A DNA stretch of 64,000 bases from a virus, in the IMG/VR virus record IMGVR_UViG_3300045988_159775; one strand, 5' to 3'. The first letter of the stretch is position 1. Each line of letters starts with the position of its first letter. Below are positions 18,659 through 46,047 of this stretch, one piece after another. Position numbers and translations under genes: made by a program. A model generated the notes under the pieces. The model did no database searches. It was not told the origin of the DNA and saw only the letters and a list, made by a program, of their open reading frames with translations.

Positions 18659-20158
18659 TTATTTAATCTCCTTACCAATATTGATAAAGCGTACCATCTT
18701 CTTCGGCGCGTACAAGAACGGTGTGCCATAGAGCAACACCATAAAGCGGAATGCCGGAGAAAGAACAGCCAAATCCATCTTCATAAGCGGCGCTAATTGA
18801 GAGAACTCAACAACCTCGTTATCGAACTGGAACAATGCTGATTGGTCAGTATCCGGTAACCAACGGTTCATATCGCGGATTAAGCCTGCTGCACCACCAT
18901 CGAATCCTCTCTGAAGATCATCCAAAGTAACGTCAAAGATAGGATAAAACATGCCTGTGGCAGTACCACCAACTTTACTACGATAAATGCGGTAAGAAGT
19001 AGCCTTATTAACGCCACCACCGTCTGTGAATTTCAAATCAATTGCACATCCGGCTACAGCAACAGCAGCGGTAGCGTAAACTGACAATTCAGATTCTCCG
19101 AAACGGTTAATAGCAGTAACAGCGTACATTACGTTGCCAGCGTCTTCAGTAGCCCATTTACTTCCGGCTACGTCAGTAACTACAGCAGCAGAGGTAGTAA
19201 TATCCCAAACAGGTTTGTTAGGCGCTTTCTGAGAAGTAGCAGGAGTAGTAGAATTTTTAGCAGGCATACGGCGGAAGAAGATATCATGATTCAAGCCGAT
19301 ACGACCAAACTGGCTATCGAACGCTTGAACTTTCTGACCCATAATACCATCGCTCAATGACGGAGTATTGGGTACGATAAATTTATTGCCGTAGAAGTTC
19401 TTAACGAAGTTAGAAAGAACTGTTGGAGGGCCATAGATTTGAGTACCAAGTCCGTAGTTTTCTACGATATAGTTAGCACCGTCCTCAATAGCACTTTCAG
19501 TCAATGCAGAACCGCGCAAGTCAATTACAACTTCGCTATCCATATAATTAGCGTAAGAAGCCCAAGCGTCAGAACGCATCTGTTGAGCTAAGAAGCCGTT
19601 GAATTGTTCCGGAACGAGTTTCTCATCGCCGAAATAAAGTCCTTGATTCAAGGTACGGAGAATCCACATAGTACCATCCTTGATAGTACGTTCCATAACC
19701 GAACCAATCATCGTATTAACGAGCGTCATCTGGTGAGTTACTGACTTAGTTACTCCTAAATACTTCACCAACTGAGCTCTACGAACAAATATTGAATCTT
19801 CTTCTTCCGGAAGTTCGCCCTCACGATTCCATCCGCCACGATTAGCACCGTAGCTAACCTGCTGGTTGTATTCTTCTACGGTATTGTATGCGGGTTTCTT
19901 CGGTAGGTCTTTCCAAAGACGGATGTCACTCTCACGGAAAGTAAGATGTTTCAAAGTCTTTTCCAAAGATTCTACTTTTAACGGCGCACCGCTTGCATCC
20001 GTCATATTTTGGGTCTGCATACCGGTAATTTGTTCAGCGGCAAGAGCCTTGTTGAGCATGTCAACGTTTTCTGAACTTCCTTGACCGATAAATCGACCAT
20101 CCTGCTGAGAGGCATGGCCATAATCAGAGAGGTTGATTGATAATCTTTCAGGTGTCAT
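18659..20158 (-). CDS. major capsid protein (HK97-fold expected)
   Basis: 499 aa. It lies directly downstream of the protease-scaffold gene and is followed by a terminator. Size and position are typical. Confidence 0.7.
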   Translation of the reverse strand: MTPERLSINLSDYGHASQQDGRFIGQGSSENVDMLNKALAAEQITGMQTQNMTDASGAPLKVESLEKTLKHLTFRESDIRLWKDLPKKPAYNTVEEYNQQVSYGANRGGWNREGELPEEEDSIFVRRAQLVKYLGVTKSVTHQMTLVNTMIGSVMERTIKDGTMWILRTLNQGLYFGDEKLVPEQFNGFLAQQMRSDAWASYANYMDSEVVIDLRGSALTESAIEDGANYIVENYGLGTQIYGPPTVLSNFVKNFYGNKFIVPNTPSLSDGIMGQKVQAFDSQFGRIGLNHDIFFRRMPAKNSTTPATSQKAPNKPVWDITTSAAVVTDVAGSKWATEDAGNVMYAVTAINRFGESELSVYATAAVAVAGCAIDLKFTDGGGVNKATSYRIYRSKVGGTATGMFYPIFDVTLDDLQRGFDGGAAGLIRDMNRWLPDTDQSALFQFDNEVVEFSQLAPLMKMDLAVLSPAFRFMVLLYGTPFLYAPKKMVRFINIGKEIK

Positions 20159-21859: not shown

Positions 21860-21899
21860 AATAAAAAGGAATCAATAGATTTTGTACTATTGACTCCTT
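21860..21899 (-). terminator. intrinsic terminator between the lysis genes and the protease gene
   Basis: 13-bp stem AAGGAGTCAATAG/CTATTGATTCCTT with one G-U pair, followed by TTTTATTTAT on the minus strand. Confidence 0.7.
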
Positions 21900-21935: not shown

Positions 21936-22277
21936 TTAATTTTCTGACATTGTTCTACGTATCCAACCGTAGAAAAATTTTTGGTTTGATGGTTTTCTCT
22001 CCGTTATACTTATGTAATACTTTATCTTTTCTATCCTACGAGCATTGATATAATTCTCATACAAAACTGTATCCCGATAGAAAACAAGAGAATCTTGATA
22101 AATCTTTAATTCTTTTTTAAGACTATCTATCTTTCCGTGATCTTCTACTTTAATAGTATCTCGAACGTGCACAAATACCGTATCTTTTCCCTCTACGGAT
22201 TTTTTCCGCTTTAAAGTATTTCCCGTACTACAAAAAGAAAAGGATAATGCTAAGAGCAAAAAAATCACGTTTTTCAT
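21936..22277 (-). CDS. lipoprotein, possibly a spanin-type lysis component
   Basis: Signal peptide plus lipobox-like MKNVIFLLLALSFSFCS. Its start overlaps the endolysin stop. Confidence 0.5.
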   Translation of the reverse strand: MKNVIFLLLALSFSFCSTGNTLKRKKSVEGKDTVFVHVRDTIKVEDHGKIDSLKKELKIYQDSLVFYRDTVLYENYINARRIEKIKYYISITERKPSNQKFFYGWIRRTMSEN

Positions 22278-22684
22278 ACAACTGAATTAAGTTTACTCAA
22301 AAGCGTTTCGCTCATCTTTCCCGTTTCCGGTAATCCGTGCTGGCGTTCTGAGAGCTTTATAGACATTCCTACGCCCATATTTACTCCGGTATCGTAGAAA
22401 TCCTCCGCAACCTTTTGATTCTTTATACGGTCGCCCCAAATGGGATTCCAATAGTTTTTTCGATAGAGGTCTTTTTTCAAAGTCTCTAAATCCTTATCCA
22501 CTATGACTTGACCGTTTTTCTTATTTGGTTTCGCATCTAAGATTGTCCAACCTGCCCAATTTGGATTAGCCTTTCTACTGATACCACTCCAAGTCTCTCC
22601 ACCGCTATCTTTAGGATCATTCGTCCAAATGTTCTTGCCCTCGTTCTTTTCAGTACGATCAAATGCTTTCCAAAAATCTGCCAT
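22274..22684 (-). CDS. endolysin, glycoside hydrolase family 108-like
   Basis: TEKNEGKNIWTNDPKDSGGETWSGIS matches the GH108 N-terminal EGG...DPGG.T..GI signature. 136 aa. Confidence 0.75.
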   Translation of the reverse strand: MADFWKAFDRTEKNEGKNIWTNDPKDSGGETWSGISRKANPNWAGWTILDAKPNKKNGQVIVDKDLETLKKDLYRKNYWNPIWGDRIKNQKVAEDFYDTGVNMGVGMSIKLSERQHGLPETGKMSETLLSKLNSVV

Positions 22685-22695
22685 GGTCGTACCTC

Positions 22696-23157
22696 CTATT
22701 CTAATCCAAGAATTTGTTGAGCTTTCTCTATGTCAATTTCTCCATCTGAGAATTCATTGACGTTAGCTTTCCAAGTCTCAGGCAACATATCTTCCTTGCC
22801 CAATTCTTTTGCGCGTTTTTTAATCCAGCGTTTCGTAGCAGCCGGATTCTTTGCGCGTCCAAAAGCCTGAATAGCGTTCGACAAATCTGAAGCGTTACGG
22901 ATAGGATACGAACCGTCAGGCATAGCTTCTTTCTTCTTAGCCAAATTCTTTCTTTCCTTTTCTGAAAATTCAGCCTTTTCGAACTCATCTCCAAAGATCA
23001 AATCTTCAGCCTTTCTTAGTTCTTCATCTTCTTCGTAATTAACTCCATCATCCTCTGCATTCATATTTAACCTTTTGGGTAAAACTTCGCCAAATAATTC
23101 AACTTCGGCTTTTTGTAAATCTTCTCTTTTCATAATAGTAAAATTTATGGAATTCAT
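22696..23157 (-). CDS. hypothetical protein carrying a conserved phage motif
   Basis: 153 aa. MPDGSYPIRNASDLSNAIQAFGRAKNPAATKRWIKKRAKELG is a motif I have seen in phage head-module proteins. Its function is unknown. Confidence 0.4.
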   Translation of the reverse strand: MNSINFTIMKREDLQKAEVELFGEVLPKRLNMNAEDDGVNYEEDEELRKAEDLIFGDEFEKAEFSEKERKNLAKKKEAMPDGSYPIRNASDLSNAIQAFGRAKNPAATKRWIKKRAKELGKEDMLPETWKANVNEFSDGEIDIEKAQQILGLE

Positions 23158-23162
23158 AATTG

Positions 23163-24605
23163 TTAATCAGTTTCCCATTCTATTGGTAAATCTATACCGA
23201 AAAAATCCTCCATTATTTCCTTTGTAATTTTCTTTACAGTGGAAGAATCCTTTCCTTTCTCCAATTCCTTTTTGACTAACTTCTTACCCCCCTTAACCAA
23301 TCTTATGACTTCTTTCATATTGGAAGTGGCGTTAAAAAGTTCGTGAACTAAAGCAAAATTCTCTCGCGTATCTTTCAAATATTTTGCAGGAGACATTTTT
23401 GAGGCTTTCTTAAGAATAGCAGAAAATTCTTTGGGGGTAGCGTTCCATGGAATAATAATAGCGTTTATGTTTTCGAACAATGGATCATATACATCTTCTT
23501 GTCCTTTTACCAATCCTCTATAATCTCTCAATACCGGATAACAACCCTTTAACATAGCTTCTATTATAAAGCCGTTTATATGAGTTCTACAATACTGAGC
23601 GTAATGCGCTGCCCAAGACGGATCAACGGCAAATTTACTATTGAAAAGTCGGTCATTAACTTCCTCCGAACTTATCTGCCCAAGATATTCCATACCGAAT
23701 TCCTCCGCAACGTCCCAAATCTTATCTCCTATATATTTTTCGTCAATATCTGGATCGCGTTTCCGGCTTACTTTATACGGTTCTTTGCATTTCGTAGGGG
23801 CTACCATGTACGCCTGTTCTATTCCCGAACCTGCTATTTGTACGGAATACAATTTTGAAGCGTTACTGTTTAAATGCGGCACGGCTCTGATAAGGTCGTC
23901 AACGTGCTTCATGGACTTGAATATATGAGCGGCAAAGAAATCTATCTTTCTTTTGTTCATCATCTTTATAGGCATACGCGCATTCTTTTCCAAGAATCTG
24001 GGATTGAGTAGCAAAGTACGCGGTATTCCTATTTCTTTACAGCAATGATAAGCGGCTATGTGAGCGCATTCTACAAAAAGTATCTTATCTCTTAAAGCCG
24101 TAATATTACTGGCGCGAACGTTAAAATATGCATCGTGTGCGATAAAGATTTGTTTTACTTTAGACGTTGGTAAATCGTAGAATTTCCACCAAAACGAAAA
24201 ATCACCCTTACTCCAAGCAGAGGACTTCGTAGGCATAAAGTTCCAAATTATAAGGTCAAATCTATACGCTAAATCTCTCCAGCGTTCAAGAGCATTGGGT
24301 TCAAATACTCCTATACGATTACTGGGAGGAAGAAAGAACCCATAGTAGTTATTCTTCCAATATCCCGTTGCTTCATCATATTCGTACCCTCCGTTTTGAG
24401 AATTTATCTTAAGATTATCTTGAAACTTTCCTTGTTCTAACTGCTTTATTTTATTGTCATAAGTTCTTTGAGTCGTAGAACTCGGAGTCAATTGAGCAAT
24501 GTCTACGAAATGTCCAAGGGATTTTAAAGCCTTAACCTTGGCAGTTACATGCTCTACAATCCCCCCGTATTTCGCTATTTCGAAATCTGCTATTAATATC
24601 TTCAT
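23163..24605 (-). CDS. GT-B fold glycosyltransferase (GT4-like)
   Basis: N-terminus MKILIADFEIAKYGGIVEHVTAKVKALKSLGHFV and C-terminal NGFIIEAMLKGCYPV both fit group-1 glycosyltransferases. Confidence 0.65.
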   Translation of the reverse strand: MKILIADFEIAKYGGIVEHVTAKVKALKSLGHFVDIAQLTPSSTTQRTYDNKIKQLEQGKFQDNLKINSQNGGYEYDEATGYWKNNYYGFFLPPSNRIGVFEPNALERWRDLAYRFDLIIWNFMPTKSSAWSKGDFSFWWKFYDLPTSKVKQIFIAHDAYFNVRASNITALRDKILFVECAHIAAYHCCKEIGIPRTLLLNPRFLEKNARMPIKMMNKRKIDFFAAHIFKSMKHVDDLIRAVPHLNSNASKLYSVQIAGSGIEQAYMVAPTKCKEPYKVSRKRDPDIDEKYIGDKIWDVAEEFGMEYLGQISSEEVNDRLFNSKFAVDPSWAAHYAQYCRTHINGFIIEAMLKGCYPVLRDYRGLVKGQEDVYDPLFENINAIIIPWNATPKEFSAILKKASKMSPAKYLKDTRENFALVHELFNATSNMKEVIRLVKGGKKLVKKELEKGKDSSTVKKITKEIMEDFFGIDLPIEWETD

Positions 24606-25273
24606 TTCTTCATACCTTTATACCAACCGTCTGGAATAGGATTGGTAGAGAAAATCATTTTGTTTTCAATACCATTATTAATCCATATCATACCAGAATT
24701 TGTACCATAATTAATTCGATCTTTCCTCTTTTTCCTTTTAACTCTGTATGGGAGTCTACCGTATCTCCAACCCTCTGGCATTTCTTGGCCATGAAGTAGC
24801 CATGAATTTTTCAAGCCATTAGTTATACTCTTTCTTTTTGATATAGTAGCGGATAATTTATTTCTCCTTTGTTCATCCCATTTAACTCCCTTGTGACACA
24901 GCGAAACGGCTAATTTTGTTTTCTTGCTTATTTTTCTACCCATTGCTGATTCACTTATTTTCTTTCTAACTTCTGGCAAGGAAGATGGGTTTACTTGACC
25001 AAAACCATTAGCAGAACCGGGAAGTATGTTGTATCCAATTCTGGGGTTGGTAGCTCGTAACTTTTTTATGAATACCATTTCCCAAACATCAAGTAACTTT
25101 TGGTTATCGCATTCCTTTAGCGTCTCTCTTTTGAAATTTTCTCTACCATACTTCTTGATAGCATCTGTTATCTTTGTACCACTACCAAGATAATGTAGGT
25201 CTTTAGATATTGTTTGACCCACATAGATTTTACCATTAATTATACAAGTAGTTTTATAAATTATCCCATACAT
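24602..25273 (-). CDS. GIY-YIG homing endonuclease (free-standing)
   Basis: YGIIYKTTCIINGKIYVGQT is a GIY-x10-YVG motif, followed by basic NUMOD-like repeats. The first ATG is at 25273; the track start at 25279 is TTG. Its stop overlaps the glycosyltransferase ATG (ATGA at 24602-24605). Confidence 0.8.
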   Translation of the reverse strand: MYGIIYKTTCIINGKIYVGQTISKDLHYLGSGTKITDAIKKYGRENFKRETLKECDNQKLLDVWEMVFIKKLRATNPRIGYNILPGSANGFGQVNPSSLPEVRKKISESAMGRKISKKTKLAVSLCHKGVKWDEQRRNKLSATISKRKSITNGLKNSWLLHGQEMPEGWRYGRLPYRVKRKKRKDRINYGTNSGMIWINNGIENKMIFSTNPIPDGWYKGMKK

Positions 25274-25275
25274 AT

Positions 25276-25965
25276 TCAAAACGGCAAATCGCTATCTTTT
25301 CTACACCAAATTTCTTCCGGCAAATTCTTTTTAATATATCCATTTTCATAGAATAAAAGTCCCGATTGAGATTTGTAAAACTTAGAAGCAAGTTTCCATT
25401 TAATATCCGCAAATTCCTCTACCGGAACTGAAGATTTAAGATACCATTCTTTTTTCTGTTCTTCAACTTGTGCTTGAGAACGTCTTTTGTATGAGTGAGG
25501 AAATTCCCGATAATATTCCATGTAAGAAAAACCTTGTTGTAAGGTTTCACGGACGAAGAAATGAAACGGGTGTCCAACTCCCCAAGGGGCTAATACCCGA
25601 TAAAATTTATTTTTTATCAAAAAATTCCTTACCCATTCAACCAAAGCGGTTTCTATCTCATTCAGCGTATCTCTACCAAAGTACTCATTAAGGTATTTAT
25701 AAGCATTTTCCAAAGTGATTCCTTTCGGATAATCCTTATTATACCCATAATAGCTTTCATCCTTAAAATCAAGCTCCAAATGATAATACGGTATATTTAA
25801 GAATTCGAATAGTTTCTCATCTTCCTTAACCCTCTTTTCATCGTTCTCTACCGTGAGTACTTGAACTTCGTACTCCGGTAGCAAAAGAACGTGAGAGCAA
25901 GAAAATAACGCATCATCTGAGTGTGGAGCAATGATAAGATATTTTCTTTTTACTTCTTTTCCCAT
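25276..25965 (-). CDS. PIG-L / LmbE family N-acetylglucosaminyl deacetylase
   Basis: LIIAPHSDDALFS resembles the AHPDDE signature, and GHPFH supplies a second metal motif. 229 aa. Confidence 0.7.
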   Translation of the reverse strand: MGKEVKRKYLIIAPHSDDALFSCSHVLLLPEYEVQVLTVENDEKRVKEDEKLFEFLNIPYYHLELDFKDESYYGYNKDYPKGITLENAYKYLNEYFGRDTLNEIETALVEWVRNFLIKNKFYRVLAPWGVGHPFHFFVRETLQQGFSYMEYYREFPHSYKRRSQAQVEEQKKEWYLKSSVPVEEFADIKWKLASKFYKSQSGLLFYENGYIKKNLPEEIWCRKDSDLPF

Positions 25966-26906
25966 TTTCGTCTTACAATAATAGGAGACAAAAAGCCGTC
26001 TTTGTGCACACTTTGCGCTAACTTCTTTATGTCTGGAGTTATCTTAGGTAGAGTTTCCTGACCAGAACTGTCTGGAAGAAAACCGACTCTCATGCTTATA
26101 TTCGTGCATCCGCTACAAGGACGAAAATCACGGCTATAATTATACAACATAATTCGCGCTGCTACGAAACGTTCATGATTCCAAAGGTCTACAATACCCA
26201 TGTCGTTTATATTAGCAATAGGATATTCACCGCGAAAATCATCACAACACAGCGATACGTTTCCATCATACCGGAAAGCAAGCTCACGGAAAGGCATTGC
26301 ACAACGCTTATTATTGTAAGACTCGTCAAGTGGTGCTGCTGCTCCACAATGATTAGCTAATTTACGAGTTATTTTGTTATCTTCTTTTATCGGAGGTAGT
26401 AGAAGTATTCTTGACTTCTTGTTGCTGGTATAAAGCGGAACGCCCTTAGTGTAAAGTTCTACGTTCCATTTACCGTCTTTTAGTTTATTTACAAAATTCC
26501 AATCTCCCTCATCCGTATAACAATCTACAATGAGATTATTTATTCCTGCATCAAAAAGATCAGCTACATACTTATCCGCGTTCTTCGCCTTATTAGCCGC
26601 ATATCCATTTGTATACATATGAAATATTGAATCCGGAAGATACGAACGGAATATTTTCACTATTTCAAAAAGGTCGGCATTCAAAGTCGGTTCACCGTGC
26701 TGAGCAAATACGATCTTACTGCGCCATCCGGCTTTTGCTATTTCACTTGCTATTCGTTTTGCGGTTTTGATACTCATAAAATTCCAAGGTTTCGTACCCT
26801 TTTCACGCATACCTCTTAATCCACAAAACGAACATCCCAAATTACACCCCTCAGTAGGCTCTACTAAAACCGTAAAGGGCGCTTGTTGTACAATTTTCTT
26901 TTTCAT
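25950..26906 (-). CDS. radical SAM enzyme with SPASM/twitch-like C-terminal Cys cluster
   Basis: CNLGCSFC is CX3CX2C, at aa 21-28. The C-terminus has CAMPF...GNVSLCCDDF...CSGC. Confidence 0.85.
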   Translation of the reverse strand: MKKKIVQQAPFTVLVEPTEGCNLGCSFCGLRGMREKGTKPWNFMSIKTAKRIASEIAKAGWRSKIVFAQHGEPTLNADLFEIVKIFRSYLPDSIFHMYTNGYAANKAKNADKYVADLFDAGINNLIVDCYTDEGDWNFVNKLKDGKWNVELYTKGVPLYTSNKKSRILLLPPIKEDNKITRKLANHCGAAAPLDESYNNKRCAMPFRELAFRYDGNVSLCCDDFRGEYPIANINDMGIVDLWNHERFVAARIMLYNYSRDFRPCSGCTNISMRVGFLPDSSGQETLPKITPDIKKLAQSVHKDGFLSPIIVRRKWEKK

Positions 26907-26919
26907 TTTCTATTTTAAT

Positions 26920-27156
26920 TCAAGAACGTAAAATTTTATCTCTTTCCTCAGCGGTGCACTCACGACAACTTCCATCCGTCTTTTTTATCAAAAGAAACAT
27001 TGGCAATCCGTAGTTTCCATCTCCCAAATTATTAGGATAATATTGAAATGCATAGCAACCGTTCCACTCCGTAAAATATTTATTGAAATACTTTTTAGGA
27101 TTCTTTTTCTCAAATGCTATTTTTTGAGCTTCTTCTAAAGTGATTCCTTTCTTCAT
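26920..27156 (-). CDS. small hypothetical protein, possibly an immunity or partner protein for the upstream toxin domain
   Basis: 78-aa ORF. Its start overlaps the stop of the toxin-domain ORF. Confidence 0.35.
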   Translation of the reverse strand: MKKGITLEEAQKIAFEKKNPKKYFNKYFTEWNGCYAFQYYPNNLGDGNYGLPMFLLIKKTDGSCRECTAEERDKILRS

Positions 27157-27830
27157 AACTTAACTTCTTTTACCAATTCTTTTACAATATCCGCTTTAAT
27201 CGGAAGATTATCTACACGCATAAACTCTAATGGGACTTTAGCACTCATTCTTAATACACTAACTATGTCCGTACTAAAATCTTTTTCCAAACCGCTTTGA
27301 GGATCATAAAACCTTAACTTTCCACTTGGTAATTTTTCCATGGTAATAATATGACTACCTCTATCTGAATCGCATTCCCAACGGTATGCTAATTGATATC
27401 TACCGACATCAGCCGCGCGTTTAAAATAATTCAAAAAAATCGCCTTTAATTTATTCTTGCTTTTTATACCGGCAAAATACAATCCCTCTGGTTTATCGCC
27501 TGTATCTGGATTAGTATCATAGGAAAGTTTGGGATCAAATGCGAGTTTATCTTGAAATTCGTTCATTCGGGGTAAGGACATTACATCAAAACCTCTACGC
27601 CTCAATTCGTAAGTGACTACGCAAGTTTGACAATTTATTTGCCATTCCTTTCCTAATTTGAAATAGGGGTTAACTCTTCCCTCATTAGCTTCTTTGAAAG
27701 ACATAGGTTTGCCGACTTTCACTCCAAGTTCTTTTTCTATATCTTCCAAATTTTTGGAGATCGCATCGGTTTTCTTCTTTGGTATTCCTCTCCAATCGAA
27801 TTTACCGGGACGGTATTCTGTCCAAACCCA
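27153..27830 (-). CDS. papain-fold toxin-like domain (Cys-His-Asp; glutamine-deamidase/Tox-PL-like); probably the C-terminal part of the MuF protein
   Basis: NCQTCVVTYELRRRGFDV supplies the Cys, and GSHIITME...FYDPQSG the His and Asp. The frame is open from 27830 and encodes WVWTEYRPGKFDWR, which continues the module begun in the MuF frame. The only start in this frame is TTG at 27749. Confidence 0.55.
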   Translation of the reverse strand, partial: WVWTEYRPGKFDWRGIPKKKTDAISKNLEDIEKELGVKVGKPMSFKEANEGRVNPYFKLGKEWQINCQTCVVTYELRRRGFDVMSLPRMNEFQDKLAFDPKLSYDTNPDTGDKPEGLYFAGIKSKNKLKAIFLNYFKRAADVGRYQLAYRWECDSDRGSHIITMEKLPSGKLRFYDPQSGLEKDFSTDIVSVLRMSAKVPLEFMRVDNLPIKADIVKELVKEVKL

Positions 27831-28815
27831 TTTTTCCGTTGGGGTGAAGATCGCCTACTTCATGAGCTTTCTCAAGGTCGTTATCTTCAGATTTACTTAT
27901 CTTTATATCAAGTTTGACACCTTTGAGTTTCTCTGACTTCCTTTTCAAAGGAGTTGTGAACGCTCTTAATTCCGGATTCCAGCCGAATCCCGGCTTTTTC
28001 CGATTAATCGTACAACGACAATAGGGGTGTATAGGGGAAATCGTAGCTTTCCAATCAGCTACCTTGCGGTAGATGTTATTTCCATTTGCTATAATATCCT
28101 TTAATTTAAAAACAATAGGTTCGCTGTTAACGTCCTTTGGATTTGTGAGTAGAAGTTCTTTACAGTGTATACAAGCACCCGGATAAACGTCAAAATAAAC
28201 TTCAACGTCTTCTCCGTAATTTTTCAAAATGCTTTGTGCTCTACCGCTATTGAATGCCTCATGAGTAAGATAGTATGCAATGCGCAACCAATCTACTTCC
28301 CAATCCTTTGAAGTTTCCGCAAATTCCGCTGCTAAATTCCTTGCTCCATAACGAAGTTCTTGAGCCTTAATAGTCTTTTGACGAATCATACGCCTGACCA
28401 TAACGGCTTGTTCTTGGTTATTCTTTAGGATATTGTTAGACACAGCCGTTCTCATACGGTTTCCCAAACTGGTAATGTCCGTGTATGCCCGATTCTTTAC
28501 CGTTTGTAACGCAAATTCTTCTTCTTCGGTTAAAGGTATGAATTTCCCTGATTCAAGAAATTTCTTAAATTGAGAATATTTCATTTTTTGGGCTCTCTTA
28601 TCGCCAACGGCTTCGGCTAATATACCAAAAAGAAATGCATGCTCAACTATACCCTTTTTGTTCTTGAATTTATCAAGATCAACTCCTGCGGCTATTAGTA
28701 TATCCTTATCCGTTTGAGATAAGAAATCTAAACCTAATTGTCCGGCTATAAATACTAACTCATAACGCTTTAGTATAGCCAACATATCAAGTATTTGCCC
28801 TTGAGTAAATATCAT
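27802..28815 (-). CDS. MuF / SPP1 gp7-like head morphogenesis protein
   Basis: SPIHPYCRCTINRK matches the H..CRC signature of the gp7/MuF family. 337 aa, ending GDLHPNGKMGLDRIPSR after an A5 run. Confidence 0.7.
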   Translation of the reverse strand: MIFTQGQILDMLAILKRYELVFIAGQLGLDFLSQTDKDILIAAGVDLDKFKNKKGIVEHAFLFGILAEAVGDKRAQKMKYSQFKKFLESGKFIPLTEEEEFALQTVKNRAYTDITSLGNRMRTAVSNNILKNNQEQAVMVRRMIRQKTIKAQELRYGARNLAAEFAETSKDWEVDWLRIAYYLTHEAFNSGRAQSILKNYGEDVEVYFDVYPGACIHCKELLLTNPKDVNSEPIVFKLKDIIANGNNIYRKVADWKATISPIHPYCRCTINRKKPGFGWNPELRAFTTPLKRKSEKLKGVKLDIKISKSEDNDLEKAHEVGDLHPNGKMGLDRIPSR

Positions 28816-29005: not shown

Positions 29006-30148
29006 TTAAATGTATATTTTAATTCTTTCCCCTCTCTTCAACGCTGAAATTATGTTAGACGCTTCTGAGAATGAAATCCTTTTCTGAGCTTGAGATATAC
29101 TTCTGAATGGCCAATCGGATAACTCACCGCGTTCTTCCAATATGTCCGTAATCTTGTCTATTTGATTATAAGTAGATTGGTCTTTTTTATTCCAACCCAA
29201 CGTTACATCATAAACTTTCTTTTCCGGTTCTTTGTTGCCCTTCAATTTTGAAACTTCTTCTTTAGCTTGTTTCAAACGTTTATCGTACTTTTCTTTTCCA
29301 TCTCGTTTGATCAAGCGTTCTTCGTTGTCTTGAAGATAACCTAATTTTTCACGAGCCGCACGCAAATCCTCTTTATCGGATTCGGAAGCCTGTCCAGACG
29401 CTTTTTTCTGTGCTTCGTTTATCTTCTTGTTTGTTTCTTTCACTTCCGCAGCATTACGTTTTTCTTCGTTTGCTTTAACGCCCAAATGTATCTTTTCAGC
29501 CTGTCTTTTCGCCAACTCTAAATTGTTCTTCTTTTCTAAGAGAGCGTTGATTCCCTCTGGAGGAAGTTTCAACTTACCCTCTTTGATAGACGCGATAACC
29601 ATATTGACAGCCTCAAGTTCTTTAGCAGGGTTTTCGTCAGAGGAAGTCTTTTTTGAAGAATCACCGTTTTTACTCATATAGGATTCAATTTCATTTGCTA
29701 ACTTCCAAGGCTCTTTGCTTTTAACAGCTAACAATCCACGCCCTATTCTTTCATCTAATTCAAATCCAAGTTTCTTCAAAAACTCTTTTTCTTTTGCATC
29801 AAGCAATTTTTTTACACTCGTGTCCCCATTCTTTAATTTAGATAGAATGTTATTTAATTTGGTTATATCGCTTTCAGAGTCTTTTTTCTTCGTAGAATCT
29901 TTCTTTTCTTCGGTGGAGACGTTTGCTTGAGATGCTTTATGGCGTCTGCCTCCTATTGTTCTCCAATCCCCCTTTCCGCCGGCAGCTGAGCTTTCCCAAT
30001 ACCATTTACCGTTTGGATGTAAATCTCCTTGTTTATGAGCCTTTTCAAACTCGTCTTCATCTACTTCGTTTATTCCAACGCCAAAACCTTTTAAAAGGTT
30101 ATTTTTCAATTCCAATTGACGTCTCTTAATGTCTTCTCCGTTATACAT
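29006..30148 (-). CDS. lysine-rich protein with N-terminal EKAH-GDLHPNGKW module
   Basis: 380 aa. Residues 34-66 read FEKAHKQGDLHPNGKWYWESSAAGGKGDWRTIGG. The rest is a low-complexity Lys/Glu coiled coil. Confidence 0.45.
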   Translation of the reverse strand: MYNGEDIKRRQLELKNNLLKGFGVGINEVDEDEFEKAHKQGDLHPNGKWYWESSAAGGKGDWRTIGGRRHKASQANVSTEEKKDSTKKKDSESDITKLNNILSKLKNGDTSVKKLLDAKEKEFLKKLGFELDERIGRGLLAVKSKEPWKLANEIESYMSKNGDSSKKTSSDENPAKELEAVNMVIASIKEGKLKLPPEGINALLEKKNNLELAKRQAEKIHLGVKANEEKRNAAEVKETNKKINEAQKKASGQASESDKEDLRAAREKLGYLQDNEERLIKRDGKEKYDKRLKQAKEEVSKLKGNKEPEKKVYDVTLGWNKKDQSTYNQIDKITDILEERGELSDWPFRSISQAQKRISFSEASNIISALKRGERIKIYI

Positions 30149-36011: not shown

Positions 36012-36338
36012 TTACTCTTTATAACTGTCAAAGACTTCTTCAATCTTCGCTACCGCTGCGACATCGTATATTAAATAACGACTTGAAAGAGTTTCATGAA
36101 TTATTATCGGCTCATCAACAAATTCCTTTAATACCGTATTGTCGTCCAAACTTGAAATTTCGGGAACGTTCCGTATTTCGTCCCATAGCTTATTGAAAGC
36201 ATCCACTAATAACCCATCTTCCATGAGCGTATTCGACAAATAACGCATCCGGGGTACAGAAGTATCAATTTCAATAGCTGCTAATTGTAGGTCAATTTCT
36301 AACGGCTCTTTCATAGCCGTAACTTTCTTTGAATACAT
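36012..36338 (-). CDS. hypothetical protein
   Basis: The track start at 36395 is GTG and lies inside the upstream gene. The first ATG after the upstream stop is at 36338. Confidence 0.3.
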   Translation of the reverse strand: MYSKKVTAMKEPLEIDLQLAAIEIDTSVPRMRYLSNTLMEDGLLVDAFNKLWDEIRNVPEISSLDDNTVLKEFVDEPIIIHETLSSRYLIYDVAAVAKIEEVFDSYKE

Positions 36339-36345
36339 ACGCCGT

Positions 36346-37494
36346 TTATAGTGTTTTAGTTTTAGGAACGAATTTTGAACGCTGTTTACCCTCACCGATA
36401 ATCATTTTCCAGTACTTCTGGAATTCGCATAACCACATTTCAATCTGATGCAAGGTTATCCCCTCGTACATCATTAAGTTGGAATCTTTTTTGTATTCGT
36501 TGTACTCATTCCGGTTATAAATGAAATACTTCTTATTTTTGTAATCCCAACCCAGATACGGAAACGGTTCACTCTTTTCTTTCTCTATATCCTCAAGCAT
36601 GGAATCTGCGCAATCTCTTAACCAATAGATAGCTTTCTTTTGCTCTCGAACGGTTCTAAGACTGGGGTAAATAAGCCGGATGCCTATAGAAGCACCGGGA
36701 CCAACATTCGTAAAGGCGTTTTGATCGAACTTCATAAATTTCTTCTTCGTATAACGCCCAATATACGTAAAGTCCTGATAAAACTCATGAGCAATGAAAT
36801 CAGCAACCGCTGGAAAGGTCTTCAAATACTCTATAATATCCTCCGGCTTCTTAGCTATGACAACCTTTGCTATAAGTTCGTTCATATGCTTATGAAGATG
36901 AGGTATTACTACACGAGTGTAACAATAATCTCTCGGTTGACCGGGAGTTGCTTGAGAATTTATAAGATACGCTGTTGTGTAAGGATTCTGACCGGAAGAT
37001 CGTATTCCAGCAATAAAACGCGAAAATTCATCTTCATCATATTCTTCCCAATCCGGTATTCCGTTACGCCATTGCTTTGCTGAAATGAGATCATCCTTTC
37101 CTTGAGCTTGTTTAAGTCCTGACTTGATAGGTGCTCCAAACATATCCATTTGGAGCGTCTTTCCTTTAGGTTCAAACTCAAAAGTTTCGGGATTGTTAAA
37201 GAAGCGGAAAACCATCATCTTCCAAATAAGGTTTTTAAGAGAAAGACTTTTATCAAGAAGAATGTTTTTGATTTGCCATTGGCTATTTCTATCCAATTCC
37301 CGATATACGTTGGTAAACTTCGATTCTTGAAATATCTTGTTATCTGTCCAAGGACGCTCTTTTTGGTCAATAAACCTCCGTTTCCAGATCATCTGACGTT
37401 CGTACATAGTCTCAAAGAATAACCTCAAATGAGGTTTATAAACCTCCAAGGATTCATCCGGAAGTTTGCTATACCAAGCTGAATTTTCAAACAT
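36346..37494 (-). CDS. candidate DNA base hypermodification enzyme (alpha-glutamyl/putrescinyl-thymine pyrophosphorylase-like, aGPT-Pplase)
   Basis: YERQMIWKRRFIDQKERPWTDNKIFQESKFTNVYRELDRNSQW fits my recollection of the aGPT-Pplase N-terminal signature (ER..I..rR.G...PWT.D.I....rFtNvyRe.DR.sq). 382 aa. Confidence 0.45.
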   Translation of the reverse strand: MFENSAWYSKLPDESLEVYKPHLRLFFETMYERQMIWKRRFIDQKERPWTDNKIFQESKFTNVYRELDRNSQWQIKNILLDKSLSLKNLIWKMMVFRFFNNPETFEFEPKGKTLQMDMFGAPIKSGLKQAQGKDDLISAKQWRNGIPDWEEYDEDEFSRFIAGIRSSGQNPYTTAYLINSQATPGQPRDYCYTRVVIPHLHKHMNELIAKVVIAKKPEDIIEYLKTFPAVADFIAHEFYQDFTYIGRYTKKKFMKFDQNAFTNVGPGASIGIRLIYPSLRTVREQKKAIYWLRDCADSMLEDIEKEKSEPFPYLGWDYKNKKYFIYNRNEYNEYKKDSNLMMYEGITLHQIEMWLCEFQKYWKMIIGEGKQRSKFVPKTKTL

Positions 37495-41972: not shown

Positions 41973-43061
41973 TTACTTCATTCCCGTGTGACCAAAACCT
42001 CCGTCACCGCGTTCCGTCACATCGTCAAACTCATTTACTAATTCAAAATCCGCCTTAACAACGTTTTCAACAAATACAAATTGAGCAATTCTCTCTCCTT
42101 TCTCAAAGAATACCTTTTCACTACCATGATTTATCAAAATTACGTTACATTCCCCACGATAGTCAGCATCAATCGTACCCGGTGCGTTAAGGCAAGTAAT
42201 ACCTTTCTTCAAAGCCAAACCGCTACGAGGACGACACTGTACTTCAACGTTCTCCGGCAGTTGCATGTAAAGTCCTGTATGAATCATGCGCCGTTCTCCC
42301 GGTTCTAATGAAAAATCCTCAGCAGCCTTTATATCCGCTCCAGAACTCTGACTTGTAGCGTAAACGGGCAATTCTCCACCCTCCTTAACAATGATTTTAA
42401 TCTTAACCGTTTTACGGGATTCATGAAAGTTTTCAACGAAAATTTGATTAAACTGATCGACTGTAGGACGGTATAACAAATCAGTTAACTTTTCAATATC
42501 TCCTCCTAAATCTTTAGCGATATTCTCAGCAAAACTCCGGAATTCGGATTCTGATAAATTCCGTTCCCGAATCAATTTCGCCAACTCTTTTACGCCAATA
42601 GATTTTTTAACAAAATGTTGTTTGATGAGTTCTCCAGAATTTTCGTCAATCATGAAAACTGGTATATCGCGTTTGATAGCCATCCGCAATTCCGTCTCCA
42701 CTCCGCCTTTAATCTCTCCAAGAAATACTGAGATACCGTCATTTTGCTCGATATAATCAAACATATGCTCCCGATAAAAATCCAACTCGCCGCTTTTCTC
42801 CAATCCCGGATTCCAGCCGTTTTGTTCCATTTCGATATGATCGTAAAGATCGTGGAACGCTTCGTGAATAGAATTATCAAAATCATTTTCAATAACTTCT
42901 TCCTCCGACAAGAAACAATGATGTAACTCAATTGTCGTATCCTCTGAGAGATCGTCAATGTATTTTTTTAAGGCGGTTTCAAATTCTCCTACTAACTTCT
43001 TTACATCTTGATCTTTTGGGGTAAAATGTAAACTTACTACTAATTTTTTCTTCTTTTCCAT
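41973..43061 (-). CDS. dut: dUTPase with a ~220-aa N-terminal extension (possibly nucleoside 2-deoxyribosyltransferase/DUF4406-like)
   Basis: All five dUTPase motifs are present: SSGADIKA, RPRSGLALK, GTIDADYRGE, ERIAQFVF, ERGDGGFGHTG. The N-terminal DGISVFLGEIKGGVETELRMAIKRDIPVF resembles the NDT-fold C-terminal motif. Confidence 0.85.
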   Translation of the reverse strand: MEKKKKLVVSLHFTPKDQDVKKLVGEFETALKKYIDDLSEDTTIELHHCFLSEEEVIENDFDNSIHEAFHDLYDHIEMEQNGWNPGLEKSGELDFYREHMFDYIEQNDGISVFLGEIKGGVETELRMAIKRDIPVFMIDENSGELIKQHFVKKSIGVKELAKLIRERNLSESEFRSFAENIAKDLGGDIEKLTDLLYRPTVDQFNQIFVENFHESRKTVKIKIIVKEGGELPVYATSQSSGADIKAAEDFSLEPGERRMIHTGLYMQLPENVEVQCRPRSGLALKKGITCLNAPGTIDADYRGECNVILINHGSEKVFFEKGERIAQFVFVENVVKADFELVNEFDDVTERGDGGFGHTGMK

Positions 43062-43314: not shown

Positions 43315-46047
43315 TTAAAGGAAAGCGTACTTAAATCCTGTAGTTATAAGATTAGAACCTAACATAGCAAGCCAAAAACTTGAACTGATGTCATCGTGGT
43401 TTCCGACCGAACACAACCCTTTATCTGTGAAAGCTACTGAACCTAAATCTTCAAAAATTAAATCTTTTACATTTTTTGAATAATCATCCCCGATAGGAAT
43501 ATGATATTTTCCCCGTTCGAATCTAATTGCCATCCCCGGCCATCCACTCTTGAGATCATACTTATCTATTCCCGTAGTGTGTCCTACAACGGGAAGTCCT
43601 TGGCGATCTGCTTCTTGGACAAATATCTGCTGAAAAGTATTCTGCTCCAATACCATAGAATCTGGTCTAAACTTTGCATTAATTCCTCTCAAAGTTTGCA
43701 TTTGCTCGTTAAACGTCAAGCCCTTTTCTCTAAAGAAATTCAACAGCCACATTTCTCCGGTCTCATCATCCACTCCCCAAGTCGTAAATACGGTATAGTC
43801 ACTTCCTACGTTTGCCGATATAGCAAAGTCGCAACCCACTACTACTTTATTAAACTTAATCGGAAAATCATCCCTATTTCTCACCAATACATAATTTTCC
43901 ATACGTACCAAGGAACGTTCCAAAACCTTTAACGGGAAAATAGACGCTTCATTCGTAATAGGTCTACAAAGGTTCTCCCGGCTGAAAATGATATTTCCTT
44001 GCGTAGCTCTCTTATCCAGAAGATCGAAGAAACTCCAACGGTGTGGCCAAAGTATTCGCCCGTCTGGGAAGATAGCCGGATATTCAATAACAAACCAACC
44101 TTTCTTAGTTTTCAAGTCTCCGTAAAGATCGCTTGCGTGGAACGGCGTTCCCACTACTACGATTTGACCACCGGGTACGAGCATGTTCATGATTACGGAA
44201 TGAAAATAGTCAATGCTCTTCTGCCTTTGTAATTGACTGTATATGACGTTATCTTTCAGTCCATCATCTACTACTATCCAGAACGGGTGAGCACCACGTA
44301 CAGAGCTTCCAAAACCCTTACACGTCAACCTCGCACCGTTCTTACATACTATATTCGTACTCGCCCACGCTCCAACGGCTCTCGTATCCGGAAAAAGACG
44401 CTCTCTCAATACGTCATTCCCCTCAATCGTACCCTTAAGTATTTCCATAAGGTCTACCGACTGCTGAAGTGAGAAAGAGAATAAATACCCACGGTTGGAA
44501 TTCGAACGCGTAGGACGAGCAGAAAAATGACTTCCACGGGGTTTAGAATATCCATATAATTTCCAAGCAGCGTATGCGTTGGAGAAATAGTAAGAATTAT
44601 GAGTTACCGTTCCATCTCCTAATAAAAATCTATGATCTCCGTCCGTAGTTATTGAAACGTACTCTCCACGCCCCACGTCAGTAATCTTTATAGAAGAAAC
44701 AACGCTTGGAGTTATTCCCTCAATCGTACCCCAATCTTTATTTGAAGTTTTTTCTTCCCAATTGTAAATCATCTTTTTTCTGGGAATCTTAACGGGTATT
44801 TGATCGATTTTTCCTGATATTGAAACTCCCCACCATTCATACATCCTCTTAAGTTGCTTATTGAACTTCTCCCCTCCGGAAAGATAAGTTCTAAACCCTA
44901 AACTATCAGCAAGTCTTTTTACGTCTTCAACTAAACGTTTATTGATGTTACCAAAGTGATATCCGTTGCTCCATAAATCTCCATCCGAATCTAAAAGCCC
45001 CGCAAGTAATTGTAGCCGGACGGCTTTAGAATTATGTAAATAAACATGCGGTATATGTTTATTGTAAAGAAGATTATACCCCTTTAAATACAAATTGAGT
45101 TTATTCTTAGTTTTGCAAGATATGACTTTTCTTCTTATATTAGACAAAAAACCTTTTCTGGAAGTTGTCATATCGAGTCTTTCCGCATATTCATCTAAAT
45201 ATTCTACAACTTCCAAATCTTCCGTAGTTATTTTTTGATTATTTGAATTTCCATCTCCTAACCAATAACCCAAAAAATAAGGTTCTATCAAAACTTTTCG
45301 TTCTGGCGCTTCCCAAGCAACCTTGAATGTTCTTATTCTCTCTTTTATGAAATTTTCAGAATAAGACAAAAGAGTTGACATATCAATATCTACAATATGC
45401 TTTTCATGATCTTCCAAGCAATTACCTCTTTTGTCTATTCTTATGCAAGTATTTATGTGACGACTGTTAACTGTATAGCTATCTCCCTTGCTTTGATCAA
45501 TTCTGTACATATGATCATCCCAACCTCTATGAACGGCAGTGACTTTACGTGGAGTAGAATCTACCCCCATTAGCAAATCTCCAACTTTAATGTCTTCGAC
45601 TTTTTTTATGCGTCCATCAAACATTAAAACGGGAGTACCAACTGCTTCGCACTTTCCGTGGTCGCGCGCCGCTTCTATACAAAGTTTCTTATGTCTATGT
45701 ACGAGATCTCCCCATTCTATGTGGTGCCAACTGAGTTGAAAATCCGGTAAAACTGAAGTAATGAAATACGTCAAATTATGAGTTCTTAAAGTCTCTTCAA
45801 TAGACTCCGATAGTCGCTCAGTATATTTAGGCGCAAAATCCACGTCAGTTTTGCCCGTATACATCACTTCAAACGTATCCCGAACTAAGTTATCAATAAC
45901 GAAATCTAAATCACCCTCCGATCCAAAAAGCAATTCATTTATTCCTCTTTCGTCCAAACCCTCTATTATTTCATCAACAACGTTTAAGCACTGCAATCTG
46001 TGCATTGGGGTTTGTAAAATTAATCCTCCGTTTTCTGAAATAGGCAT
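43315..46047 (-). CDS. terL: terminase large subunit, interrupted in frame by an intein
   Basis: Splicing out aa 133-484 gives the Walker A AARDHGK|S. The C-terminal half has a typical terminase nuclease region. 910 aa as the precursor. Confidence 0.8.
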   Translation of the reverse strand: MPISENGGLILQTPMHRLQCLNVVDEIIEGLDERGINELLFGSEGDLDFVIDNLVRDTFEVMYTGKTDVDFAPKYTERLSESIEETLRTHNLTYFITSVLPDFQLSWHHIEWGDLVHRHKKLCIEAARDHGKCEAVGTPVLMFDGRIKKVEDIKVGDLLMGVDSTPRKVTAVHRGWDDHMYRIDQSKGDSYTVNSRHINTCIRIDKRGNCLEDHEKHIVDIDMSTLLSYSENFIKERIRTFKVAWEAPERKVLIEPYFLGYWLGDGNSNNQKITTEDLEVVEYLDEYAERLDMTTSRKGFLSNIRRKVISCKTKNKLNLYLKGYNLLYNKHIPHVYLHNSKAVRLQLLAGLLDSDGDLWSNGYHFGNINKRLVEDVKRLADSLGFRTYLSGGEKFNKQLKRMYEWWGVSISGKIDQIPVKIPRKKMIYNWEEKTSNKDWGTIEGITPSVVSSIKITDVGRGEYVSITTDGDHRFLLGDGTVTHNSYYFSNAYAAWKLYGYSKPRGSHFSARPTRSNSNRGYLFSFSLQQSVDLMEILKGTIEGNDVLRERLFPDTRAVGAWASTNIVCKNGARLTCKGFGSSVRGAHPFWIVVDDGLKDNVIYSQLQRQKSIDYFHSVIMNMLVPGGQIVVVGTPFHASDLYGDLKTKKGWFVIEYPAIFPDGRILWPHRWSFFDLLDKRATQGNIIFSRENLCRPITNEASIFPLKVLERSLVRMENYVLVRNRDDFPIKFNKVVVGCDFAISANVGSDYTVFTTWGVDDETGEMWLLNFFREKGLTFNEQMQTLRGINAKFRPDSMVLEQNTFQQIFVQEADRQGLPVVGHTTGIDKYDLKSGWPGMAIRFERGKYHIPIGDDYSKNVKDLIFEDLGSVAFTDKGLCSVGNHDDISSSFWLAMLGSNLITTGFKYAFL
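44596..45651 (-). mobile_element. intein with LAGLIDADG homing endonuclease
   Basis: It starts at Cys in CEAVGTPVLMFDG and ends at ...GDGTVTHN, with Ser at +1. The two LAGLIDADG motifs are LGYWLGDGNS and LLAGLLDSDGD. Confidence 0.8.

Follow-up and report, generated by a model that had tools for sequence, protein, structure and literature searches.

Positions 23163-26906 of a stretch of viral DNA 64,000 nucleotides long (IMG/VR virus record IMGVR_UViG_3300045988_159775; the whole stretch is referred to here as the window) hold a small cassette of enzyme genes. An earlier note, made from the sequence alone, had read it as a radical S-adenosylmethionine enzyme (rSAM), a PIG-L deacetylase and a GT4 glycosyltransferase (GT), and had offered a hypermodified DNA base, a virion-protein glycan or a small molecule as the product. 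Comparison with related phages leads us to lean modestly towards DNA as the target. All but two of the long open reading frames (ORFs) of the window are on the minus strand, including the four of the cassette, which we found with the coordinates and motifs that the note had given:

25950-26906, minus strand: BtrN-like radical SAM enzyme with a single-cluster, twitch-type auxiliary Fe-S domain (318 aa; Pfam and PDB profile)
25276-25965, minus strand: divergent PIG-L/LmbE-type (N-acetylglucosamine-type) de-N-acetylase, a core member (229 aa; motifs and profile bridging)
24602-25279, minus strand: GIY-YIG homing endonuclease (PHROG homing endonuclease E 4.4e-32; weak Pfam GIY-YIG matches)
23163-24605, minus strand: GT-B fold, retaining-type glycosyltransferase resembling GT4 enzymes and the T4 alpha-glucosyltransferase, a core member (480 aa; AlphaFold2 and Foldseek)

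The genes are as tightly packed as had been described, with overlaps of 16 nt between the rSAM and PIG-L genes, 4 nt between the PIG-L and endonuclease genes and 4 nt between the endonuclease and GT genes; the GT stop codon lies 5 nt from the next start. We consider the enzyme identities highly probable.

For the rSAM, both Pfam scores lie well over their cut-offs, as expected from the earlier assignment (Radical_SAM, PF04055, E 5.8e-14, 53 bits against a cut-off of 29.5; SPASM, E 7.5e-11, 42.6 bits against 21.5). Its cysteines fall in the motif CNLGCSFC at residues 21-28 and in two C-terminal groups, C202-x17-C220C221 and C264-SG-C267, and all of them, those of the CX3CX2C motif included, are invariant in 13 homologs of 45-89% identity. 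Full SPASM domains carry about seven cysteines, including a CX2CX5CX3C motif, and twitch domains about four. The window enzyme has no CX2CX5CX3C motif and four to five auxiliary cysteines (C202, C220/C221, C264, C267), and it is therefore of the single-cluster twitch type, as is BtrN, and not a full two-cluster SPASM enzyme; of the two labels that the note had attached to the cysteine cluster, only the second holds. When a profile of the 13 homologs was searched against 177,635 PDB sequences, BtrN was the only solved structure matched at E <= 1e-3 (4M7T and 4M7S, E 1.5e-15), which bears out the earlier guess of a BtrN relative. The alignment runs over two stretches (profile positions 14-133 and 197-277) that correspond to the core and the auxiliary Fe-S domain, with the conserved cysteines in register. 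Among isolated phages, a relative of this enzyme could be detected only in Campylobacter phages. In one of these (vB_CjeM_WX1, locus L195, 109721-120464), the relative lies among several radical SAM genes together with an amidinotransferase and an aminotransferase; this 'BtrN protein' neighbourhood was set aside as uninformative, the identity being only 24% and the cluster one of multiple rSAM, amidinotransferase and aminotransferase genes.

The deacetylase is placed in its family less directly. The window protein falls below the Pfam cut-off for PIG-L (PF02585; E 0.01, 16.8 bits against 28.2), and weak matches to the same family were seen in 39 of its 42 close homologs (best E 4.6e-05). The motifs PHSDD (residues 14-18) and GHPFH (131-135) are invariant or nearly so in these 42 proteins, and the P, H, D, D ... 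H positions are still invariant in 50 remote homologs; we take the pattern [AP]H.DD ... H..H to represent the metal-binding and catalytic motifs of PIG-L/LmbE enzymes such as MshB and LmbE. A search with the family profile retrieved 367 representatives. Of the 50 remote homologs, 23 match PF02585 at E <= 1e-3 (best E 1.4e-16), with no other recurrent family, and proteins P0454 (40.4 bits) and P0449 (39 bits) both exceed the cut-off. Searched against the PDB, the family profile gave just a sub-threshold N-terminal match to Dbv21. The PIG-L call of the earlier note is thus upheld by profile bridging and motifs, and not by the direct Pfam threshold. In several homologs the PIG-L domain is fused to a GT domain, of the GT4 (P0454), GT1 (P0480) or Glyco_transf_5 (P0489, P0497) family, and these repeated fusions strengthen the earlier argument that a GT paired with a PIG-L enzyme makes a glucosamine (GlcN) glycoside.

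The glycosyltransferase was recognized by its fold. Its sequence carries no GT signature over threshold: the Pfam scan gave only Glyco_transf_5 below the cut-off (E 0.0025) and no GT1 or GT4, and the PDB profile search found no match; one homolog, P0332, carries PF13439. Read from the sequence, the motif NGFIIEAMLKGCYPV resembles the nucleotide-sugar motif of GT4 enzymes, and THINGFIIEAML holds only the second Glu of an EX7E motif. The AlphaFold2 model (predicted local distance difference test score, pLDDT, 86.8) adopts a two-Rossmann GT-B fold, for which Foldseek returned 305 PDB matches at E <= 1e-3, with target-normalized TM-scores (TMt) up to 0.70. The best were PimA (E 1.4e-12) and the T4 alpha-glucosyltransferase (AGT; E 2.5e-12), then TarM, BshA, MshA and SdgB. 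The T4 AGT matches have query-normalized TM-scores (TMq) of 0.54-0.57 and include complexes with DNA containing hydroxymethyluracil (HMU); this likeness is at fold level only, since the Pfam scan of the GT found no PF11440 (GT72, phage DNA alpha-glucosyltransferase). In BFVD, two SP-15 glycosyltransferases and several proteins annotated as DNA AGTs are among its nearest model matches once its own family is set aside; the SP-15 enzymes have been proposed to act on the modified uracil of that phage (PMC5977210). The earlier GT4 call therefore survives as a GT-B fold, and the N- and C-terminal signatures claimed for it do not reach sequence thresholds. Isoelectric points did not discriminate (GT 9.0, rSAM 9.2, PIG-L 5.9).

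We compared the locus with those of about 100 related phage contigs, using locus sets anchored on three genes: the rSAM gene, an aGPT-Pplase-like gene described below, and the gene for the MuF-like head protein upstream of the cassette. The MuF-anchored set (28 loci) is unbiased with respect to the cassette. A PIG-L gene and then a GT-B gene directly follow MuF in 28 of 28 of these loci, so that the arrangement is not due to chance. The rSAM gene stands between MuF and PIG-L in only 7 of the 28 and is dispensable in the other 21; the Pplase-anchored set shows the same two states, with and without rSAM, and some other relatives carry the rSAM gene elsewhere in the genome. The PIG-L/GT pair is therefore the core and the rSAM an accessory, and the full triad that the earlier note had in mind is not a conserved unit. 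That note had named a lack of co-conservation as the result that would speak against it, and this is what we see for the rSAM but not for PIG-L and GT. A natural rSAM::PIG-L fusion (P0350) indicates that the rSAM is, as far as domain architecture can tell, functionally tied to its cassette neighbors. Within the MuF-anchored loci the rSAM also appears to alternate with an FkbM methyltransferase (FkbM in 16, rSAM in 7, both in none, neither in 2), which suggests alternative tailoring of one product or scaffold.

The cassette appears to be confined to this kind of phage. Among one genome per species for 185,579 species, the PIG-L family was found at 3 loci only, all of them on phage-backbone contigs in metagenome-assembled genomes, and tblastn with the PIG-L and GT proteins found no homologs in 50,697 phage records. 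A near-identity DNA search with the cassette region likewise gave no matches in those records. The earlier note had allowed that the genes might have clear orthologs in unrelated host pathways; we found no clear cellular orthologs (for the PIG-L family, in the same species genomes), and on these searches the genes do not look like host-derived morons.

A link to DNA is provided by domains of the TAGT family (PF20691), of which the window itself has none. This is the family of the T2/T6 beta-glucosyl-HMC-alpha-glucosyltransferase, which adds a second glucose to glucosyl-hydroxymethylcytosine (hmC) in DNA (PMC13216743). In two loci with the same backbone (L192 and L193), a PIG-L::TAGT fusion (TAGT E 2.2e-13) stands beside rSAM in place of the GT-B gene after MuF, the order being rSAM, PIG-L::TAGT and then, in L193, a second rSAM (L193:6961-10465). 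PIG-L/TAGT fusions occur in either domain order (P0354, P0465), and for P0465 (TAGT::PIG-L) no locus was located in viral contigs. In L016, L017, L093 and L094, paralogs of the rSAM (46-60% identity) are also paired with a TAGT gene, as a second module of two genes; in L093 this module directly follows the aGPT-Pplase-like gene (its rSAM gene is apparently frameshifted), and in L094 the terminase and dUTPase genes lie on either side of it. The contig that holds both L011 and L094 has two rSAM paralogs, one by the PIG-L and GT-B genes after MuF and the other by TAGT. The slot that follows the Pplase-like gene is variable (L040:11116-12165; L056:11055-12970; L093:925-2705, with rSAM and TAGT) and is empty in the window, where it corresponds to about 36012-36345. 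It holds TAGT plus FkbM in L056, L199 and L200 (TAGT E 4.1e-10 in L056), of which L199 and L200 also keep PIG-L and GT-B, and FkbM alone in 16 MuF-anchored loci.

Two further genes of the window bear on the nature of the base:

36346-37494, minus strand: aGPT-Pplase-like protein (Pfam 'HMUDK_hel'), no kinase domain (PF18723 E 1e-46, 160 bits)
41973-43061, minus strand: dUTPase / dCTP-deaminase (DCD)-like protein (Pfam dUTPase E 2.8e-28, DCD E 1.7e-09)

The full Pfam name of PF18723, 'HMUDK_hel, 5-hmdU DNA kinase helical domain', is misleading for the first of these. In gp186 of phage SP10, a kinase domain (PF18748) is followed by PF18723, and the window protein aligns to the C-terminal half (the aG/PT-PPlase part) of gp186 and to the Nachito 'aGPT-pyrophosphorylase clade 1' protein. 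On this comparison we rejected PF18723 as a sign of a kinase for 5-hydroxymethyl-deoxyuridine (5-hmdU): the protein corresponds to the aGPT-Pplase-like part and has no P-loop kinase domain. It keeps a conserved Cys-Glu pair in MWLCEFQKYW, and such a pair has been noted as essential in clade-2 aGPT-Pplase enzymes (PMC8989533); a PDB sequence search with it found no match. Judged by these alignments, the gene marks a thymidine-hypermodification system. The dUTPase/DCD-like protein would supply dUMP for a 5-hmdU pathway. Outside the window, loci L110 and L112 encode a 402-aa ThyA-like protein (PF00303 E 2e-24), a YfbR-like HD nucleotidase and Nmad1; the remaining genes of these contigs have about 95-100% identity to the window, and L112 lies on the same contig as L001, whose rSAM is 100% identical. 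The ThyA-like protein aligns with the thymidylate-synthase homologs that SP10 and Nachito encode beside their hypermodification genes, and it keeps the uracil-specifying Asn, at a position set by the E. coli reference sequence. Together with the window dUTPase/DCD, the ThyA-like, YfbR-like and Nmad1 proteins make up the kit expected of a 5-hmdU phage.

Of the three targets that the earlier note had offered, a hypermodified DNA base is thus the one now favored, on the strength of TAGT at the locus, the aGPT-Pplase-like gene and the dUMP-hydroxymethylase kit. We put somewhat better than even chances on the cassette serving to attach and tailor the sugar in a thymidine hypermodification system, and about the same, slightly favorable odds on its chemistry being the transfer of an N-acetylhexosamine (HexNAc) onto 5-hmdU in DNA, de-N-acetylation to an amino sugar and, optionally, oxidation or epimerization by the rSAM. 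From the observed enzyme families, gene linkage, fusions and swaps we infer an acceptor, a sugar and an order of steps as follows. The lineage would replace thymidine by 5-hmdU, using the ThyA-like protein as a dUMP hydroxymethylase together with the dUTPase/DCD and the YfbR-like nucleotidase. Once the DNA has been replicated, the retaining GT-B enzyme (23163-24605) would glycosylate its 5-hmdU at the hydroxymethyl group with a HexNAc, most simply N-acetylglucosamine (GlcNAc) donated by UDP-GlcNAc. Next, the PIG-L-like enzyme (25276-25965) would take off the N-acetyl group to leave a cationic amino sugar, a chemistry known from the PIG-L family, here on a presumed substrate. Known thymidine hypermodifications, namely putrescinyl-, aminoethyl- and aminoethoxymethyl-dU, likewise add amines (PMC5889632). 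In some of the phages, including that of the window, the BtrN-like rSAM could finally abstract a carbinol hydrogen to give a keto sugar or an epimer, acting either on the sugar in DNA or on the nucleotide-sugar donor. The donor is a candidate substrate because the rSAM paralogs pair with TAGT where no PIG-L is present, and an rSAM of this kind would resemble the 'partner epimerases' of metavirome GTs. Radical SAM chemistry would suit a strictly anaerobic host. Relatives would swap in or add other tailoring genes, TAGT and the FkbM methyltransferase.

Several observations weigh against this proposal. The acceptor is deduced from gene neighborhood, domain swaps and fold resemblance only, and the GT-B matches to enzymes that do not act on DNA (PimA, TarM, BshA and the protein O-GlcNAc transferases SdgB and GtfA) equal that to the T4 AGT. 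The Pfam E-values behind the TAGT calls range from 1e-6 to 1e-13, and a GT-A enzyme could have switched to another acceptor. Although the AlphaFold model of the PIG-L protein has a pLDDT of 93.3, Foldseek against the PDB found nothing at E <= 1e-3, only generic Rossmann-like matches and no PIG-L entry in the top 50, and because this fold-level confirmation failed, membership in the family is argued from profile bridging. With the SP10 and Nachito kinase domains as queries, phmmer and hmmsearch of the window and of L228, L241 and L029, jointly equivalent to the whole genome of a close relative, found no PF18748-type 5-hmdU kinase, so that the canonical route from kinase to Pplase to nucleophile is incomplete. 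One candidate for a divergent kinase is an unannotated 477-aa protein at 53399-54832, near a gene for a C5-cytosine DNA methyltransferase; it has an N-terminal P-loop (GGGGKT), and neither Pfam nor a PDB sequence search gave a match to it. Since the PIG-L/GT, aGPT-Pplase-like and ThyA-like genes are all core, presence/absence statistics cannot separate the hypotheses; neither the cassette nor the Pplase-like gene seems to be present in the six Bacteroides phages with the same capsid type, which speaks weakly in favor of a link. The alternation of rSAM and FkbM may reflect clade structure, the loci being phylogenetically non-independent. Finally, the cassette lies between MuF and capsid genes, among what are probably ejected cargo proteins (the toxin, P-loop and kinase-like proteins described next).

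The surroundings of the cassette are those that the earlier note had described, with MuF and toxin genes upstream and a GH108 lysin (22274-22684) and the major capsid protein (MCP; 18659-20158) downstream:

27802-28815, minus strand: MuF-like head protein, directly upstream of the cassette in all related loci
27153-27749, minus strand: Gln_amidase (papain-fold) toxin domain, variable cargo (Pfam PF15644 E 5.9e-11)
22696-23157, minus strand: C-terminal remnant of a P-loop protein of 596-731 aa (matches the C-termini of the L005, L011, L012 and L192 proteins)
21866-21899, minus strand: terminator-like hairpin with a 13-bp stem and a T run, the only strong intrinsic-terminator-like hairpin downstream of the cassette

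MuF and the Gln_amidase toxin are one ORF of 553-558 aa in L020, L022 and L222, and the window and L024 have them as two ORFs because of a single-base indel; in the window this 1-nt frameshift lies near 27830 by comparison with the fused 558-aa ORF of L222, and a pseudogene, a programmed frameshift or an error of assembly might account for it. The toxin is missing in L005-L008, where MuF abuts the rSAM gene, and it is variable cargo, not a member of the pathway. A 78-aa ORF (26920-27156) co-varies with the toxin and may encode its immunity protein. On the other side of the cassette, the 153-aa ORF at 22696-23157 is what the window retains of an intact P-loop protein that follows the GT in most relatives; the N-terminal part of that protein is missing, as is the kinase-like protein of 788-831 aa that comes next, and most relatives have both (e.g. 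L005:11127-15480). A motif, GD.HP.GKW.W.EY.PGKFDWR, recurs at the N-termini or domain linkers of several otherwise unrelated proteins of the portal-to-capsid block (in the window, at the N-terminus of 29006-30148 and at about 27790-27850; in relatives, L005:11127-13109, L011:11111-13192 and L016:5402-6934). It may serve to target packaged or ejected proteins to the capsid or to mark them for processing.

The endonuclease at 24602-25279 had been taken for an interruption, and junction comparisons agree that it is a mobile one: it sits precisely at the junction of the PIG-L stop codon with the GT start codon, is missing in L001, L004, L022 and L023, which are otherwise about 99% identical, and is not part of the pathway. 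Its translation probably begins at the ATG at about 25273 (MYGIIYK) rather than at the listed TTG. The same junction is a recurrent insertion site for GIY-YIG endonucleases of differing sequence (also L002, L020, L021, L196, L197, L208, L211 and L226; in L225 the endonuclease is between MuF and PIG-L), and near-identical phages differ only by its presence or absence.

The hairpin at 21866-21899 probably ends the transcription unit. Between about 30000 and 21900 we found no other minus-strand terminator-like site except a weak candidate inside the rSAM coding sequence (26273-26253), and because no other such hairpin precedes 21866, the cassette is probably co-transcribed with genes for head-packaged effectors. 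As a class, terminator-like sites are at chance (8 against 7.5 expected), from which the 21866-21899 hairpin stands out. Matches to sigma-70 promoters are not clearly above shuffled sequence (40 against 31.4 +/- 5.1), with a tool that does not cover Bacteroidota promoters.

A crAss-like phage was suspected first and then ruled out: the MCP is of the SPO1/Herelleviridae type and closest to those of the Bacteroides myophages SJC03 and DAC19 (47% identity; 36% to Bacillus phage SP10). Human-gut assemblies hold metagenomic contigs of about 60-103 kb that encode identical or near-identical proteins. Assigned on gene content rather than phylogeny, the host lineage of the cassette looks to be a 'Gratiaviridae'-like myophage of about 100 kb infecting gut Bacteroidales; the 'Gratiaviridae' are predicted Bacteroides/Parabacteroides phages (PMC8008677). 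The shared content comprises a DnaE split by a homing endonuclease, SbcCD, RecA, a UvrD-like helicase, a ferritin-like protein and a baseplate that would fit a contractile tail (PMC8008677). In relatives of the window phage, a block of glycosyltransferase, P-loop and kinase-like genes lies between the portal and capsid genes, as in 'Gratiaviridae', and we equate the P-loop and kinase-like proteins with the 'AAA ATPase + HipA-like kinase' of that group. In close relatives the DnaE-type polymerase is encoded by two ORFs split by a NUMOD3-containing endonuclease gene (L110:2453-6968). Inteins occur in MuF of L071 and in the large terminase subunit of the window (43315-46047; Hint and LAGLIDADG), whose L061 homologs are intein-free and about 590 aa long. 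Beyond window position 1, L029:901-6184 encodes two large tail-fiber proteins with an N-terminal Mtd_N (major tropism determinant) domain, one of them also with a beta-helix, and the C5-cytosine DNA methyltransferase mentioned above (50941-52359, E 7.8e-88) has an N-terminal extension of about 113 aa.

Given these surroundings, the cassette might instead glycosylate virion or cargo proteins, with the GT-B enzyme attaching O-GlcNAc to capsid, tail or ejected proteins during head assembly, the PIG-L enzyme converting it to GlcN and the rSAM tailoring it. SdgB and GtfA O-GlcNAcylate bacterial surface proteins, and both of these protein O-GlcNAc transferases are among the GT fold matches. Flanked by MuF on one side and by the lysin, scaffold and MCP genes on the other, the cassette also shares their orientation, is tightly packed and meets no terminator before 21866; its neighbors are probable head-packaged effectors sharing the GD.HP.GKW.W.EY.PGKFDWR motif. 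The earlier note had deduced late expression from the same position; as an argument for a virion-protein target this fails, since dUTPase, flap endonuclease and aGPT-Pplase-like genes share the terminase-to-capsid block, and position therefore says little. No acceptor-repeat protein (e.g. one with SD repeats) was seen, and relatives have TAGT at the same locus and rSAM-TAGT pairs beside nucleotide-metabolism and aGPT-Pplase-like genes. We regard a virion-protein target as unlikely, at roughly one chance in five.

We are more doubtful still about a role in remodeling the host envelope, in which a capsule, lipopolysaccharide or teichoic-like glycan would be altered late in infection to block superinfection, and we consider it improbable. 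TarM and PimA, both enzymes of envelope glycoconjugates, are top GT fold matches. Against such a role, cellular orthologs of the PIG-L family are lacking among the 185,579 species genomes and homologs among the 50,697 phage records, and a close relative in the host is usual for seroconversion genes of the moron type. The TAGT swaps and fusions also point away from envelope substrates. Just such a role has been suggested for a 'Gratiaviridae' glycosyltransferase, ATPase and kinase, apparently the same gene block (PMC8008677), but the window phage does not have the ATPase and kinase partners of that model. Very improbable, finally, is the synthesis of a soluble GlcN-glycoside, aminoglycoside-like or thiol-like, by a module like BtrM/BtrD/BtrN or BshA/BshB: the cassette does parallel the butirosin enzymes BtrM (GT4), BtrD (PIG-L) and BtrN (radical SAM), with BtrN the sole solved relative of its rSAM and BshA and MshA among the GT fold matches, but no Pfam 2-deoxy-scyllo-inosose synthase, aminotransferase or cysteine ligase was found among the ORFs scanned (a non-exhaustive set of most window ORFs of at least 150 aa at 17-62 kb, some tail-module ORFs and the flanking ORFs of relatives), the rSAM is dispensable in 21 of 28 relatives, and TAGT swaps make no sense for such chemistry.

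The favored reading, a sugar built on 5-hmdU in DNA, has counterparts in several known systems. As in T-even DNA glucosylation (alpha- and beta-glucosyltransferases plus the T2/T6 TAGT), a GT-B enzyme structurally close to the T4 AGT is joined or replaced in relatives by a TAGT-family GT-A, and the sugar is presumably added to a hydroxymethyl pyrimidine after replication. Unlike in those phages, the base here is probably 5-hmdU rather than 5-hmdC, there is no membership in GT72 or GT63 by sequence, the genes lie in the head-gene block, and PIG-L and radical SAM genes, both absent from T-even phages, are attached. Metavirome 5hmC clusters (a C5-methyltransferase, 5mYOX and a GT) encode phage GT-A and GT-B enzymes that put hexose, HexNAc or heptose on DNA, with epimerase partners that prepare or tailor the sugar, and their text names no deacetylase or radical SAM enzyme (bioRxiv 10.1101/2023.12.21.572611). 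Their GT-B members, like ours, resemble BshA and MshA; the window lineage differs from them in having a ThyA-like, pre-replicative precursor route and an aGPT-Pplase-like gene instead of a methyltransferase and TET enzyme.

Thymidine is hypermodified in SP10, ViI, M6 and PhiW-14, which append amino acids or polyamines via a 5-hmdU kinase and a clade-2 Pplase (PMC5889632, PMC8989533). They share with the present lineage a PF18723 gene, a ThyA-like hydroxymethylase, a radical SAM among the tailoring genes and, for SP10, a related MCP (36%). They differ in that no kinase was found here, that the tailoring genes here are carbohydrate enzymes, and that the rSAM is BtrN-like and unrelated to the SPL-like gp53 of M6. 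The pairing of a GT4 with a PIG-L enzyme is familiar from BshA/BshB, MshA/MshB, PIG-A/PIG-L and BtrM/BtrD, where, as predicted for the cassette and supported by its PIG-L::GT fusions, GlcNAc transfer precedes de-N-acetylation, and BtrN is the closest solved structure to the cassette rSAM; those enzymes act on small molecules or lipids in cells, whereas the cassette family is confined to one phage lineage and the other enzymes of their pathways were not found among the ORFs scanned. The 'Gratiaviridae' themselves share DnaE, SbcCD, RecA, the ferritin-like protein and the contractile tail, and relatives of the window phage share their GT, P-loop and kinase-like genes between portal and MCP; the glycosyltransferase at that place had been noted earlier, with a guessed role in modifying the host capsule, in a source that names no radical SAM and whose Gratiaviridae section describes no PIG-L or aGPT-Pplase-like gene (PMC8008677).

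Phage GT-B and TAGT enzymes that glycosylate DNA, 5hmC that carries HexNAc and radical SAM enzymes in thymidine hypermodification are thus already known. A PIG-L deacetylase or BtrN-type rSAM in DNA hypermodification was not found in the searchable literature. With greater reserve, and at well under even odds, we suggest that abundant phages of gut Bacteroidales carry a free amino sugar on their thymidines (glucosaminyl-5-hmdU or similar), made by a GT-B enzyme and the first PIG-L-type deacetylase to act on DNA, and in some strains also by the first BtrN-type rSAM to act on a DNA-linked or DNA-destined sugar, an anaerobe-adapted step interchangeable with FkbM O-methylation and TAGT extension.

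If true, this would add de-acetylated amino sugars and sugars tailored by radical SAM enzymes to the neutral sugars and amino acids of phage DNA hypermodification, and would supply new DNA-acting enzymes: a HexNAc transferase, an anaerobic sugar dehydrogenase and a glycan deacetylase whose product bears an amine as a reactive handle. It would also explain a 'Gratiaviridae'-type gene block formerly guessed to be directed at the capsule, and it predicts modular, swappable tailoring genes (rSAM, FkbM, TAGT), whose exchange could set strain-level sensitivity to restriction enzymes, type IV nucleases and glycosylase-based defenses. DNA of this kind may be under-represented or mis-called in sequencing-based virome surveys. 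For the phages themselves, a lineage present in many human-gut metagenome assemblies, it would mean a kind of DNA camouflage so far undescribed.

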